Below are positions 21,214-24,562 of a stretch of DNA of 35,549 nt, piece by piece. Position numbers and translations under genes: made by a program. The notes beneath the pieces were generated by a model, which saw only the letters and a list, made by a program, of their open reading frames with translations, was not told where the DNA came from and ran no database searches. The DNA is taken from positions 1 through 35,549 of the forward strand of contig DATMCI010000364.1 in NCBI GenBank assembly GCA_035558535.1, read 5' to 3'. The number at the start of each line of letters is the position of its first letter. The stretch's first letter is position 1. Source of the stretch: Kofleriaceae bacterium (lineage in GTDB: Bacteria > Myxococcota_A > Polyangia > Haliangiales > Haliangiaceae).

Positions 21214-21414
21214 CGGGCCCTCGCCGCCGGCCGCCCCGCCCGGGCGGATGCTCACGCGCGAGATCGGTCCACACACCCAGCTTGCCCATCACGCGCTTCG
21301 AGTGCGCCCGCCACTCGGCGCCGCGCTCGAGCGTGCCTGACGAGCGCACCCAAAGTTGGCCCCCTGCATCCTCGCCATGTAGGTTGCGCGCCACTGCCCG
21401 CCAAGGGAAACGGC

Positions 21415-23079
21415 GTGCATGCAAGGAGCTTTGGAATGGTGTGCTCTGGATACCCCTCTTTTGTCCAACGGAACGTGCTGCGTAGTGCCAGGAGCCTCGT
21501 GAAACTCTTGGCCGCGCTGCTGTTATTCACCCTCCCGGCCACGGCCAGCGCGCAGATCTTTCCGCCGGGGAGCAACGGCGTCGCCAAGCCCCGCGGGTTC
21601 ACCATCACGCCGCCCTTCAAGCGCGGCAGCTCCTATGAGATGTCGTGCACCTACAACTGCCTTGCGCATGTAAATGGAAGCTTCGGTACACAAGATTACT
21701 TTGCGCTCGACTTCAAAATGCCCTTGGGCGACGCCGTGCACCCCGCCGCCCCCGGCCAGGTGCGGATCGCCAAGACCGACCCGGCCACGGGGAATCAGGG
21801 GTTCGAGCCCTACGGTACGTTCGTCTTGATTGAACACTCGAATGGCTACTACAGCCTGTATGCGCATCTCAACAGCATCTCGGTGAGCGCCAATCAGTGG
21901 GTTGACATCGACTCACCGATCGGGACGGCAGGGGCGACGGGCTCCGGCGCGCACGGGATCAATCACCTCCACTTCGCTCTCTACAAGAACGTGACGGTCT
22001 ACACGGCCGATTCGAGCTGGTCCGGCGGCTCCGCGGTCGTACCCGAGCCCATCTCGGGGTGCACCAAATCGTCAGGCGGCGATTGCGAGTGGCTCGACAC
22101 CGCGCCCGTCTGGCTCCGCCGCGACGACTACGCGCCGGCTGTGGTCGGTGGCGTCAATAGCGCGCTCGATCTCGTCACATGCAATCGCAGCGCGGGGAAC
22201 CTCATGTATCGACGGCGTGACACCGCCGGGGTGTGGGGGGCATGGACCAATCTCGGTGGCACCTGCGCCAGCTCGCCCGCCGCGGTCCGCGATAACGCGG
22301 GAAACCTCTTCATCTTCGTGCGCGGGCTCAATGCAGAGCTCTGGGCCAGGAAGCTCACGGGCAGCACCTGGAGCGGATGGCTCCAGATCGGCGACTCCGT
22401 GGTCGGGAGGCCGACCGCAAGTCTCGACACCGTCTCGGGCGTGGTGCGCGTCTTCGTGCGACGAACGCCGAATCAATCGGTGTATGTGGCGTCCCAGCAG
22501 AGCTCGGGGAGCTCATCCTTCACGGCCTGGAAAAACCTGGGCGGCACCCTGACCAACTCGCCGGTGGTGGGCTCGCGTACGGATGGGCGCCTCGACATCT
22601 ATGCCGCAGCGCCCGATTACACCTTCTGGAAGATCCCCGGCAACAGCGATGGGACGTTCACGACGGAGTGGTGGCATCCGCTCTACGTCTCCCTCGAAGG
22701 CGAGCCAACGTTTGTCTCGCAGGGGGCCACGTTCTTCGCCGCGCGAACCATTGACGACAAGCTGTATCTCCAGGGCGGCGCGACGCCAGCGGCGGCGACG
22801 CATCGCCCGGCGCTGGCGCGCAACTCCGGCGCGAATCTCATCCTCTTCGAGCGCAATCGCTCGACCAGCGCAACCGATTACTATTATCCGACCAGCGGCA
22901 CGACGTGGTCAGCGAATTCGTTCGGTGGCCTCGCGACCAGCGAGATCACCGCGGTTCGCTCCACGAACCAGAAGGTGATCATGTTCATCTGGGGAACCAG
23001 CGGCCTTTATTACCGCGAGCAGAGCTCGAGTGGCGCCAATTCGTGGACTGGCTGGATCGATCTCCTGATCGCGCTGTGA
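21415..23079 (+). CDS. M23 (LytM) family peptidase fused to a Trp-rich beta-propeller lectin-like (tectonin/PLL-like) repeat domain
   Basis: Signal peptide (LVKLLAALLLFTLPATASA; the start may be the ATG at 21436). M23 motifs HxxxD and HLH (GTFVLIEHSNGYYSLYAHL...GINHLHFALY). After that come at least 6 repeats of the pattern W(G/S/T)(A/G)W(T/L/K)(N/Q)(L/I)GG, spaced about 45-50 aa apart. GC is below background. Confidence 0.8.
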   Translation: MHARSFGMVCSGYPSFVQRNVLRSARSLVKLLAALLLFTLPATASAQIFPPGSNGVAKPRGFTITPPFKRGSSYEMSCTYNCLAHVNGSFGTQDYFALDFKMPLGDAVHPAAPGQVRIAKTDPATGNQGFEPYGTFVLIEHSNGYYSLYAHLNSISVSANQWVDIDSPIGTAGATGSGAHGINHLHFALYKNVTVYTADSSWSGGSAVVPEPISGCTKSSGGDCEWLDTAPVWLRRDDYAPAVVGGVNSALDLVTCNRSAGNLMYRRRDTAGVWGAWTNLGGTCASSPAAVRDNAGNLFIFVRGLNAELWARKLTGSTWSGWLQIGDSVVGRPTASLDTVSGVVRVFVRRTPNQSVYVASQQSSGSSSFTAWKNLGGTLTNSPVVGSRTDGRLDIYAAAPDYTFWKIPGNSDGTFTTEWWHPLYVSLEGEPTFVSQGATFFAARTIDDKLYLQGGATPAAATHRPALARNSGANLILFERNRSTSATDYYYPTSGTTWSANSFGGLATSEITAVRSTNQKVIMFIWGTSGLYYREQSSSGANSWTGWIDLLIAL

Positions 23080-23129
23080 CCGCTCCGCTGTGAGCGCGTC
23101 GGCGCGCTGGGCGTTGCGGCTACAGCAGA

Positions 23130-24137
23130 TCACAGCAGATCGAAGATGTGGACCATCTCGTCCTTGTTGTTGCAGTTGGTGTTTGAATCACCCACGTCGG
23201 ACACGAGGGCCACACGGCTCGCGCTCAGGAACGTGACGCCCTCGACGTTGCAGTAGTCGCTCGACGGCATCGGGTAAATGGTGCCGTCGTCCAGGAAGCT
23301 CCAGCTCGTGCCGCTCAGGCGACCGATCCACAGCGCCTTGGACTCCTGCGAGGTGACGGCCACCTGGTAGGTGCCGTCGGTGTTGGGGCGGAGCGCCAGG
23401 TCGGAGTAGTCCATGAAGCTCACGGCCGCGGGCAGGCGCAGCAGGGTGGACGAGGCGCTCCAGCTCGATCCGCTCTGGGCCATGACCCGGATCGCGCCGC
23501 GACCGCCGCTGCCGCCGTGGCTCGACGTGCAGTCGAAGCCCTCGCACAGGCCGAGCAGGTAGTCGTTGCTGTACCGGCGCAGCCAGGCGAGCCCCTCGAA
23601 GCCCTTGTTGCTGTCGCTAAAGCTCACGTTGGTGGGCTGGTGATCGGCGCTGCCGCCGCTCGCCAGGTCGTCGTACTGGACCACCTCGGCGCTGGTCTGC
23701 TCCACGACGGTGTAGAAGTGCTGCGTCGCGTTGTCGTCGAACGTGATGCCCTCGTACTGCGACTCCGTGCTCGACGAGCCGCCCGAGGCGTAGCTGCCGC
23801 TCAAAAGATCGAGCGCGACGCGGCCGATCTTGGTCATGTTGTTGAATACGATATAGAGCTGGCTGTTATGGAGCTGGACGCCGCTCGCCTCGTAGTCGTT
23901 GACGCCAGAGAGCGGGATGATCTGCGAGATCTTGCGCTCGCGGACCAGGCGCAAGGTGCCGCTCGCGGCGAGCTCAGAGGACGCGGTGGCCTCGCCCTCC
24001 GCGGACGGAGGCTCCAGGCAGGCGCCGCCGAGGAGCGCGAGGAGCGCCAGGGACGCCTGGGGGAGCGACGGGAGCCGGTGTGTGCGGTGCGTGCGATGCG
24101 TGCGGTGCGTGCGGTGCCGGGAATCGTGATCTCGCAT
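23130..24137 (-). CDS. YjiK/SdiA-regulated or phytase-like beta-propeller family lipoprotein
   Basis: 335 aa. The N-region carries a (THR)x4 hexanucleotide-encoded repeat, followed by a lipobox (ALLALLGGAC). The motif YEASGVQLHNSQLYIVFNN resembles SdiA-regulated/YjiK and esterase-like-phytase propeller proteins. Family assignment is tentative. Confidence 0.55.
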   Translation of the reverse strand: MRDHDSRHRTHRTHRTHRTHRLPSLPQASLALLALLGGACLEPPSAEGEATASSELAASGTLRLVRERKISQIIPLSGVNDYEASGVQLHNSQLYIVFNNMTKIGRVALDLLSGSYASGGSSSTESQYEGITFDDNATQHFYTVVEQTSAEVVQYDDLASGGSADHQPTNVSFSDSNKGFEGLAWLRRYSNDYLLGLCEGFDCTSSHGGSGGRGAIRVMAQSGSSWSASSTLLRLPAAVSFMDYSDLALRPNTDGTYQVAVTSQESKALWIGRLSGTSWSFLDDGTIYPMPSSDYCNVEGVTFLSASRVALVSDVGDSNTNCNNKDEMVHIFDLL

Positions 24138-24373
24138 GAGGTTTCCTTGGTTCGTTGTCTGGGTTGAGTGGACGGCGGCGCGGAGCGCGCCCCGCTCGAC
24201 GCGCGGCGTGCAGTAGAGCGCCCTTGCGCTGGCTGGCCTTGGCGAAGTGCAGCCGTCATGCCGGCGGCGCCCGCCGCGGCGCGAACGCGGGATTTTAGCC
24301 GGCGCGACGGGAGCTTGCGCGCGGCGGAGCGCCTGGAGCGCCGATCGCCCGCCGATCGCGCGACGACCGCCGT

Positions 24374-24432
24374 CGCCGGATCAACGTCCGATCAACGTCC
24401 GATCTACGTCCGGGTCCGAATCTACGTCCGCC
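24374..24432. repeat. 11-bp tandem repeat (gatc[at]acgtcc, about 4-5 copies) upstream of the propeller lipoprotein gene
   Basis: The sequence reads directly ccggatcaacgtccgatcaacgtccgatctacgtccgggtccgaatctacgtccg. Confidence 0.75.
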
Positions 24433-24439
24433 GGGCGAT

Positions 24440-24562
24440 CCGGCGGCGGCGGTGACGTGGCCCGCATGTCCGGCGAGGCGGACGTGGGCCTGCCGCTCGT
24501 CACCGGCACGTCGGCCGGCTTCGCCGTCGCCTACCGCGCCACTGCCCGTAGCGTCTGCCGCC
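24440..24562 (+). pseudogene. Duplicated 3' fragment of the 20083..21213 lipoprotein gene
   Basis: About 105 bp at roughly 92% identity to 20965-21070 (ggcggcggcggNaacgtggccNgcatgtccggcgag...gtcgcNtaccgc; both encode VA(S/R)MSGE(T/A)DVGLPLVTGTS(T/A)GFAVAYR). It is followed directly by a match to the last ~20 bp of the native gene (cgcgcc(a/t)ctgcccgtagcg). That is the structure expected for a copy with an internal deletion. Confidence 0.7.

Follow-up and report, generated by a model that had tools for sequence, protein, structure and literature searches.

Homology-facilitated illegitimate recombination (HFIR) and the displacement of gene 3' ends are treated as documented mechanisms in the passages of two papers that deal with them (PMC3240628; PMC5361080). 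In the second, the passage that cites Jackson et al. 2009 gives displacement of resident gene ends as the model for T6SS effector-immunity arrays and for Rhs "orphans". Here we compare with these systems a locus in a Kofleriaceae bacterium, located in a metagenome-assembled (MAG) contig of 35,549 nucleotides that was analysed over its whole length (the window). The best reading of this locus is that it is a scar of duplicative recombination, left either by a homology-anchored displacement of a resident gene's 3' end or by a gene duplication followed by decay. The Myxococcota beta-propeller lipoprotein family concerned is uncharacterised, and neither the family nor the locus has been described before.

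An intact lipoprotein gene and a second copy of its 3' end

The intact gene, lipoA (20083-21213, plus strand), which is either the source of the repeated fragment described below or its paralog, codes for an exported lipoprotein of 376 aa which, from its open reading frame, its homologs and an AF2 model, is predicted to be a seven-bladed beta-propeller. No Pfam domain matched the protein. The model is all-beta (pLDDT 87, pTM 0.83) and in fold it most resembles WD40 and PLL-lectin propellers, with TM-scores of ~0.5-0.6. An invariant lipobox Cys, five invariant Cys and a C-terminal TRLCP motif are shared by 28 full-length homologs, and in the alignment of this family (n=28) conservation is among the highest over the C-terminal ~30 residues, D350, L351, T353, W354, W362 and TRLCP being invariant. 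The GC3 of lipoA is 0.966.

Window-against-window blastn and a repeat search detected one direct repeat of lipoA. Its codons ~294-326 (copy A or block b, 20963-21060) recur 3.4 kb downstream of the intact gene in the same orientation (fragment B, block b, 24440-24537), 91 of the 98 nt being identical (93%, E 1.9e-35). A second matching piece, block d, joins the last lipoA codons and the TAG stop at 21197-21215 to 24535-24553 with 18 of 19 nt identical. Between these blocks fragment B lacks the 139 nt of block c (21061-21199), and a 3-nt CGC microhomology lies at the ends of the missing segment. Since 139 is not a multiple of 3, the TAG of fragment B (24549-24551) is out of frame. No homology to lipoA was found by blastn 5' of 24440 and fragment B has no start codon; being both frameshifted and start-less, it is a dead stub. 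Thus fragment B, which covers the last blades of the lipoA propeller model only in part, has significant nucleotide homology to an intact gene and is truncated and frameshifted, as gene remnants are, and it is a non-functional lipoprotein-gene stub. It is also the sole paralogous trace of lipoA within the window (tblastn E 2.4e-12). The first-pass annotation had already noticed a duplicated, internally deleted lipoprotein 3' end in direct orientation, together with the match to the last ~20 bp, and the repeat is real and not a coincidence of low complexity. The two repeat peptides that it gave are correct, that of the second copy being in frame in the ORF 24247-24732; its length of ~105 bp is not, the main block being 98 nt.

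Over these 98 nt the two copies are nearer to each other than to the homolog in the related locus L007, to which they are identical at 76-78 positions, and judged by outgroups derived changes have occurred on both A and B. The duplicate is therefore lineage-specific and recent. Of the six changed codons four are non-synonymous, seven substitutions in all being too few to infer selection. A 14-mer, CGCGCCACTGCCCG, that is common to 21387 and 24535 was judged to be a chance match (~0.8 matches are expected per 6 kb of such composition); it is not conserved in the related contig L088.

The surroundings of the stub and the genes between the copies

The stub is followed by a convergent DUF6036 nucleotidyltransferase gene (24573-25172, minus strand; PF19502, E 1e-9). 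In L007, 15 nt separate a lipoprotein gene (70% aa identity) from the convergent DUF6036 gene downstream of it, the product of which is 77% identical to that of the window; the L007 contig stops inside this gene. Window 24537-24786 is collinear with L007 3309-3552 (80% nucleotide identity over 250 nt), and across the tail-to-tail junction (24552-24582) the alignment score is 129 against a shuffle mean of 15. Because fragment B keeps the junction of the L007 type, it marks the ancestral position: it sits where the lipoprotein gene used to be, tail-to-tail with DUF6036, and serves as a historical marker of this former adjacency. The sequence after its stop codon (B-type post-stop) also matches the post-stop of a stub in L088 over 28 nt, a match reached by none of 2000 shuffles. 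In contrast, the spacer that follows lipoA itself (21216-21307) is unrelated to the post-stops of fragment B, L088, L007 and L006, since its scores against all four are no better than those of shuffles (p 0.2-0.99). A comparison of lipoA with L007 and L006 revealed no clear mosaic break, such as displacement by a diverged donor would predict, the resident allele being absent from that comparison.

Two genes lie between lipoA and the stub, as the first-pass annotation had stated, and are interposed relative to the ancestral lipoprotein/DUF6036 adjacency. The first lies in a unit (21308-23087, plus strand), delimited by its conservation in L088, that consists of a conserved upstream region and a gene for a secreted M23 peptidase fused to a PLL-type beta-propeller, with the start at 21415 or 21436 and the end at 23079. 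The peptidase domain passes its gathering threshold (PF01551, E 9e-18, 64.7 bits against a cut-off of 28.7). The C-terminal Beta-prop_PLL domain (PF26607) is a precomputed assignment on orthologs that our own scan did not reproduce. The fusion named in the annotation is upheld on this basis. The unit is ~90% identical to L088 over a BLAST match at 21133-23087, its left boundary being at 21308 (L088 731). A metagenome scan with the M23-propeller alignment returned mostly generic M23 domains, L089 and L090 being the only full-length relatives; in these two and in L174 the M23-propeller homolog occurs with neither partner gene.

The second gene (23130-24137, minus strand) was identified from its ORF and homologs and codes for a propeller lipoprotein of 335 aa, YjiK/SdiA-regulated-like, with the lipobox LGGAC. 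It had been called YjiK-like from the outset, and while the protein itself matches PF06977 weakly (17.2 bits, below the cut-off of 21), PF06977 or PF13449 is present in several of its homologs (50-78% identity), to which their sources give the name YjiK/SdiA-regulated, and this sustains the assignment at the level of the homologs. Its upstream region (24138-24430) is conserved at 76-79% by blastn in L169, L171 and L172 and also in L088, and ends in a tandem array of ~4 units of the 11-bp motif GATC[A/T]ACGTCC detected by TRF (24379-24430). The motif has 7 one-mismatch matches in the window, where 0.6 are expected, and 4 units lie in the array. Homology with the orthologous propeller loci stops at 24430, and fragment B begins less than 10 nt farther on. 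The array is confined to the region upstream of propeller orthologs (5 of 174 loci), and in all five contexts examined the unit ends at it. From 23132 to ~24430 the unit is kept as a block in L169, L171 and L172, whose contexts are unrelated; these orthologs, at 76-82% aa identity, are accompanied by neither the M23 nor the lipoprotein gene. The array is a candidate regulatory element and may deserve separate study.

The two inner genes are thus independent units and not a conserved or mobile cassette. The idea that they form a foreign two-gene cassette is not supported: they occur separately elsewhere, each has its own upstream region, there is no recombinase, and GC3 does not set them apart, being 0.82 (0.819) for M23 and 0.93 (0.926) for the propeller lipoprotein against 0.82-0.97 for the neighbouring genes. 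GC3 thus gives no clear sign of a foreign origin. Their GC content is indeed lower than that of the whole window (0.62-0.68 against 0.71), as had been observed, but this is not confined to them, for the low stretch takes in the DUF6036, HTH and MVP-like genes and extends as far as ~27 kb. Scans for promoter and terminator consensus sequences gave results at or below shuffle expectation.

The condition by which the first-pass annotation would have been refuted, related genomes with the same two genes at this place and no flanking repeat, gave a mixed result: the close relative L088 (sample ERZ1761215) has these genes together with a lipoprotein stub, in a permuted order. There the propeller gene, the intergenic region, the array, the stub and M23 follow one another, a circular permutation of the block order in the window. 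The L088 stub retains another part of the gene, the last ~38 codons (lipoA 21104-21215) without block b, and its B-type post-stop and ~50 nt of unique sequence lead into M23 instead of DUF6036. As both the part retained and the following gene differ, the two genomes must be separated by one additional rearrangement or more, and as L088 holds the three pieces in permuted order, the neighbourhood has been rearranged repeatedly. L088 complicates a story of a single event. The region is rearrangement-prone: in L006 a 3' relic of DUF6036 lies upstream of the lipoprotein gene, and in the window a nearby transposase gene is partially duplicated in tandem (17254-17730 and 17772-18223). When 80 Myxococcota loci around the MVP-like gene were screened with all window proteins, none had the lipoprotein, M23, YjiK-like or DUF6036 gene near it, so that at least ~19.6-26 kb, upstream of the MVP-like gene, is variable; no empty site or immediate pre-event genome was found among them. 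The two HTH genes that flank the region are not paralogs, which rules out a larger duplication with these genes in it.

Possible origins of the arrangement

The order and mechanism of events are what we infer from this arrangement. The account that we favour, and think more likely than not, is that a duplicative recombination left the full-length lipoA 3.4 kb upstream of a stub that stayed at the ancestral position, with the M23-propeller gene and the propeller-lipoprotein gene, the latter with its 11-bp-repeat upstream region, placed between them. By the preferred route, that of displacement, the incoming segment would have consisted of an intact lipoprotein 3' part, then M23, then the propeller unit. 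One of its ends would have paired with the resident lipoprotein gene, while the other would have been joined illegitimately just where the 11-bp array stops, so that the resident 3' end was moved downstream. Afterwards the stub may have lost its 139 nt through a deletion at the CGC microhomology, which shifted the frame.

The strongest competitor, also raised in the first-pass annotation and still viable although we rate it at about half the weight of the favoured account, is a local duplication that decayed. The lipoprotein gene would have been duplicated in tandem, with or without its flanks, and the copy beside DUF6036 would have decayed, its 5' two-thirds being replaced as the M23 and propeller units arrived and 139 nt being lost later. 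The end state is the same as that of the favoured account, and the 93% identity of A and B with changes on both lineages agrees with it, as do the partial tandem duplication of the transposase gene on this contig and the order in L006 (DUF6036 relic, then lipoprotein gene), which is expected if a tandem [lipoprotein-DUF6036] duplication was followed by deletion. On the other hand, it takes more steps (one duplication, two gene arrivals and two deletions), and the contexts of 28 family members that were examined revealed no tandem lipoprotein paralogs. Furthermore, because the post-stop flank of lipoA is unrelated to that of fragment B, the end of the duplication must have coincided with the stop codon, unless the flank was replaced later.

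It is unlikely, in our estimate, that the propeller unit is a recombinogenic or mobile module which joins preferentially at its array end, or that the whole M23-propeller segment cycles between an integrated and a circular or amplified form, the latter working through the flanking lipoprotein repeats with L088 having captured the other form. If either were true, secreted-protein genes would be shuffled in Myxococcota without a recombinase. The excisable form of this idea, by itself slightly less likely still, holds that RecA recombination between the lipoprotein repeats loops out a circle or amplifies the segment in tandem; L088 would then show the junction of the circle or of the tandem copies, and the window would show the integrated state (Campbell-type). 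Homologous recombination can use direct repeats of ~100 nt, and circular permutation of the block order in the window gives exactly that of L088. However, the junction that this predicts, block b followed by the lipoA post-stop spacer, is absent, as L088 has no block b and a B-type post-stop; its contig does not self-close but lacks ~800 nt of the propeller gene, and there is no assembly break at the junction. Nor does the segment contain a replication or integration gene.

An assembly artefact, in which a strain-variant piece of the lipoprotein gene was misplaced in the contig, would suit a metagenome-assembled source and a divergence of 7%, which is within the range of strain or species variants. 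This is very improbable: A and B are identical over at most ~35 nt in a row, a length that would not mislead an assembly of the k=141 type, and the junction of array and stub recurs in L088 and that of stub post-stop and DUF6036 in L007, both independent assemblies.

More doubtful still is the insertion of a transposon, IS or integrative element that gave rise to a target-site or att duplication of the lipoprotein 3' end, a form of which had been proposed at first. Direct repeats do bound a 3.4-kb segment on either side, and the 3' end of the target gene is reconstituted, as happens with elements that integrate into gene 3' ends. Against this, the CDSs between the repeats are only the M23-propeller and YjiK-like ones with intergenic gaps of at most ~300 nt, no transposase, recombinase or integrase was found there, and the nearest recombinase-type gene, for an IS200-like Y1 transposase (18025-18759), lies outside the repeats. 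No terminal inverted repeats were detected by the repeat search or by comparing the ends with their reverse complements, the best local match being a GC-rich 27-mer (p~0.03 against shuffles). There is no short target duplication; the flanking repeat is ~117 nt long in two blocks, 7% diverged and internally deleted, with different sequences after the two stops, and is not a target-site duplication. The inner genes are separate elsewhere, and searches for phage or plasmid relatives of the segment gave no meaningful matches. Equally implausible is a working role for fragment B, as a silent cassette (gene-conversion donor) or as an orphan C-terminal module that varies the lipoprotein C-terminus, since, although a full gene followed by a displaced 3' fragment in the same orientation fits formally, four of the six changed codons are non-synonymous and an eCIS_core effector-type gene is nearby, the substitutions are too few to reveal selection, the C-terminus with its invariant TRLCP is the most conserved part of the family, B is 93% identical and not a different tip, and it is a single, frameshifted, internally deleted stub with no immunity-like gene after it.

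Comparison with known systems

The locus is an ordinary scar of genome rearrangement and not a mobile cassette, and it matters little beyond itself. It does provide a comparative record of the shuffling of accessory genes for secreted proteins in the large, GC-rich genome of a myxobacterium through duplication, displacement and decay, here without a recognisable mobile element, and it is a warning that what looks like a "cassette flanked by direct repeats" can turn out to be a scar of recombination.

Among the known systems, elements that integrate at gene 3' ends resemble it in that target-derived direct repeats (attL/attR) flank the inserted DNA and the gene is intact on one side. Here, unlike in such elements, neither an integrase nor an excisionase is encoded, the repeats have diverged and suffered a deletion, and elsewhere the inner genes form no coherent element, being found apart in other loci and permuted in L088. 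L007 does have an empty-site-like arrangement of convergent lipoprotein and DUF6036 genes. The circularly permuted order in L088 recalls Campbell-type integration or unequal crossing-over, but its junction sequence differs from that predicted by the repeats of the window.

The likeness to HFIR and displacement is closer, as an intact gene is followed by newly placed genes and then by a 3' piece displaced from the resident gene, with one junction in homology and the other, here at the end of the 11-bp array, non-homologous; for lipoA this mechanism is inferred and not demonstrated. The differences from the Rhs and T6SS cases are that the lipoprotein is not a polymorphic toxin, that its C-terminus is conserved, and that the displaced piece is nearly identical to the intact gene. 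Unlike the orphans of Rhs, CdiA and T6SS effector-immunity loci, fragment B has no immunity gene and is followed by the 3' end of the convergent DUF6036 gene. The gene remnants of large bacterial genomes are the closest match of all: fragment B repeats an intact neighbouring gene in direct orientation but is truncated, frameshifted and start-less, with an internal deletion bounded by microhomology and variable accessory genes around it, and nothing essential differs.

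Fragment and ancestral junction

The complete 35,549-bp MAG contig labelled Kofleriaceae bacterium (Myxococcota), mean GC 0.71, carries an intact lipoprotein gene, lipoA (VNO30_47290; 20083-21213, +), and the duplicated 3' fragment of this gene that the first-pass annotation had proposed is real. A repeat search and a blastn self-search of the window gave a single direct repeat of 98 nt, 20963-21060 (copy A) versus 24440-24537, with 91 of 98 positions identical (E 1.9e-35), and a second block, 24535-24553 versus 21197-21215 (18/19), that spans the final codons together with the TAG stop. 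No further copy of lipoA was found in the window by tblastn. The downstream copy, fragment B (24440-24553), corresponds to a portion of the final blades of the lipoA protein and lacks 139 nt of lipoA (21061-21199) between its two blocks, with CGC at both ends of the deletion. The loss of 139 nt, not a whole number of codons, puts the TAG of fragment B (24549-24551) out of frame. Since fragment B is frameshifted, has no lipoA homology 5' of ~24440 and has no start codon, it is a dead stub and is non-functional.

The position of this stub was clarified by L007, a locus from another genome that carries a lipoprotein homolog (70% aa, 78% nt) and, 15 nt beyond its end, a DUF6036 gene (77% aa) in convergent orientation. 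L007 3309-3552 aligns with window 24537-24786 at 80%, starting inside the second block of fragment B, and the local alignment of the post-stop sequences reaches a score of 129, whereas shuffles average 15. In the window, the stub, its post-stop sequence and the DUF6036 gene are therefore collinear with an intact, convergent lipoprotein-DUF6036 arrangement found elsewhere, which shows that the stub sits at the ancestral junction. The post-stop spacer of lipoA (21216-21307) has no likeness to the post-stop sequences of fragment B, L007 or two other fetched loci, L006 and L088 (p 0.2-0.99). Copy A and fragment B are closest to each other (91/98, versus 76-78/98 to L007), and at their seven differing sites the outgroups place derived states on both copies; therefore the duplicate is lineage-specific and fairly recent, or it originated in a close relative about 7% diverged.

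The lipoA protein has no Pfam match. Its family comprises 28 full-length relatives of 358-392 aa, known only from metagenomes and MAGs, in which the lipobox cysteine, five cysteines and a C-terminal TRLCP are invariant. An AlphaFold model built from the family alignment is all-beta and confident (pLDDT 87, pTM 0.83), and by Foldseek it groups with 7-bladed propellers, including WD40 proteins and Photorhabdus PLL lectins (TM ~0.5-0.6, at most 16% identity). Therefore all three genes of the feature, lipoA and the two genes between it and the stub, are predicted to encode exported beta-propeller-containing proteins. Proteins with the eCIS_core domain, formerly DUF4157, recur near the lipoA family and near one ortholog of the second inner gene (window 14619-16856, -; L004 2850-8066; L169 7399-8736), and in L004 and L005 a 1738-aa eCIS_core protein is encoded two genes ahead of the lipoprotein homolog. 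Such recurrence suggests a variable effector-type neighbourhood.

Inner genes and the 11-bp array

The inner genes are an M23 peptidase with a PLL-type propeller (21415/21436-23079, +) and a YjiK/SdiA-regulated-like propeller lipoprotein (23130-24137, -). Close orthologs of the latter (76-82% aa over the whole protein) are in unrelated neighbourhoods in L169 to L173, with no M23 or lipoprotein gene beside them, and the block conserved with these loci extends from the stop codon (23132) to ~24413-24430, that is, the gene and about 300 nt upstream. Likewise, neither partner is present with the M23-propeller homologs in L089, L090 and L174. There is no room for a recombinase beside the two coding sequences, the segment ends carry no inverted repeats, and neither phage nor plasmid relatives were found. 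These results show that the inner genes are independent units without the hallmarks of a mobile element, and the two-gene foreign cassette proposed in the first-pass annotation is not borne out. Nor does the codon-usage check proposed with it single them out, as their GC3 values of 0.82 (M23-propeller) and 0.93 (propeller lipoprotein) compare with 0.82-0.97 in the neighbours: eCIS_core protein, 0.89; XRE HTH (19637-20044, +), 0.82; lipoA, 0.97; DUF6036 nucleotidyltransferase (24573-25172, -), 0.87; XRE HTH (25159-25956, -), 0.84; and MVP-like protein (26120-28825, +), 0.96. Towards the N-terminus of the YjiK-like lipoprotein, 4.7 copies of a 9-bp repeat, CGGTGCGTG (24076-24117), encode an (HRT)n run that precedes the signal peptide; the far shorter version in the L088 ortholog suggests an expansion of the slippage type.

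The outer limit of the propeller gene's conserved block is an 11-bp tandem array, CGATCTACGTC, of three to five or more copies, whose unit equals one helical turn. The array was found in five of 174 fetched loci, only upstream of YjiK-like propeller lipoprotein orthologs, and it lies ~240-290 nt upstream of every one of them (window 24379-24430; L088 481-524; L169 9773-9826; L171 6656-6687; L172 1645-1676; L173 2-22). The window has seven one-mismatch matches to the unit versus 0.6 expected by chance, four of the seven being the array's four copies at 24379-24429. Fragment B starts less than 10 nt beyond the array, which is the end point of all homology blocks between contexts and of the stub junctions in two genomes. 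It may be a regulator-binding array, a fragile, recombination-prone joining edge, or both, and we consider it the most interesting residue of the locus.

Rearrangements of the neighbourhood

L088, a 2,504-nt ENA contig from sample ERZ1761215, carries an M23 ortholog that is 89% identical. It consists of the 5' end of the propeller gene (1-231, -), the intergenic region of window 24138-24377 (232-480), four 11-bp units (481-524), a lipoprotein stub (536-653), about 28 nt of post-stop sequence of the fragment B type, about 50 nt of unique sequence, and the M23 unit (731-2504, equal to window 21308-23087). The stub equals lipoA 21104-21215 at 90% identity, that is, the last ~38 codons and the stop, with a 25-nt internal duplication, and its post-stop match to fragment B was reached by none of 2000 shuffles. 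The array-stub junction and the orientation from stub to M23 are common to the window and L088; in the window these two features belong to different lipoprotein copies, and in L088 both are on one stub. The block order of L088 is a circular permutation of that of the window, and there is at least one additional rearrangement between the two genomes.

In L006 the lipoprotein gene is preceded by a DUF6036 3' relic (3808-3936; 90% nt to window 24586-24680) and followed by a piece (5234-5417) whose homology is to the carboxylesterase gene's 3' end at window 28840-29038 (gene 28847-30469, -). Relative to L006, about 7.6 kb is interposed in the window, comprising the M23, propeller, stub, DUF6036, HTH and MVP-like units. 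The contig carries another partial gene duplication in direct orientation, that of the IS200-like Y1 transposase gene (Y1_Tnp; 18025-18759, +), whose first 66 codons and upstream region are tandemly duplicated (17254-17730 versus 17772-18223; 81% nt, 94% aa). Thus the L088 permutation, the L006 variant and this duplication indicate that the neighbourhood has been recurrently rearranged by partial duplications and deletions.

Other features of the contig were noted. The DUF6036 and XRE HTH genes (24573-25956, -) share a 14-nt overlap (25159-25172), and their layout is like that of a toxin-antitoxin or defence-like pair; DUF6036 pieces recur beside the lipoprotein gene in L006 and L007. The 26120-28825 product is a bacterial protein homologous to the major vault protein of eukaryotes (Pfam MVP_shoulder, E 5e-24; Vault_3) with relatives in 80 genomes (47-79% identity), mostly Myxococcota MAGs and including one Cytophagales MAG and one contig labelled Candidatus Achromatium; its neighbours vary among these genomes without conservation. 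The lowest GC of the contig, 0.56-0.58 versus the mean of 0.71, is at 30501-31500, in the stretch that separates the carboxylesterase gene from the long ORFs that follow. At 34655-35549 (+), running off the contig end, at least eight tandem 93-nt (31-aa) cysteine-rich repeats (EACDDGNTTNGDGCDNNC...) match Pfam DUF4215 (E 8e-51, 8 stretches), and this array, cut at the contig end, may be the reason the assembly stopped there.

Origin of the remnant

The route we prefer is a homology-anchored displacement. Donor DNA in which an intact 3' part of the lipoprotein gene preceded the M23 and propeller units would have paired with the resident gene, and its far end would have been attached by an illegitimate join at the 11-bp array's edge. 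The resident lipoprotein 3' end would thereby have been pushed downstream, and a later microhomology deletion would have occurred in the displaced stub. About half as probable is a route in which the lipoprotein gene was duplicated locally and the copy next to DUF6036 then decayed; this route leads to an identical end state but needs more steps. The circularly permuted order of L088 could point to a minor alternative, in which the inter-repeat segment is a circular or amplifiable unit; however, a circle or tandem junction between the window repeats predicts the 98-nt block and lipoA's own spacer, and L088 has neither, so the simple form of this model fails. A mobile element with target duplication is another minor alternative, against which stand the missing space for a recombinase and the lack of inverted repeats and of phage or plasmid relatives. 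Two further minor alternatives, that fragment B is a functional silent cassette or an assembly artefact, are contradicted by specific tests.

The feature is real but ordinary, a gene remnant that records how a plastic accessory region of a myxobacterial genome was rearranged, and as such is a further instance of a well-known phenomenon. The lipoprotein family lacks the defining features of polymorphic toxin loci and falls outside them because its C-terminus is conserved and fragment B is near-identical to copy A. The preferred displacement route shares the logic of homology-facilitated illegitimate recombination, as outlined in PMC3240628, and the same logic is found in the displacement models put forward for T6SS effector-immunity arrays and for Rhs orphans, as outlined in PMC5361080.
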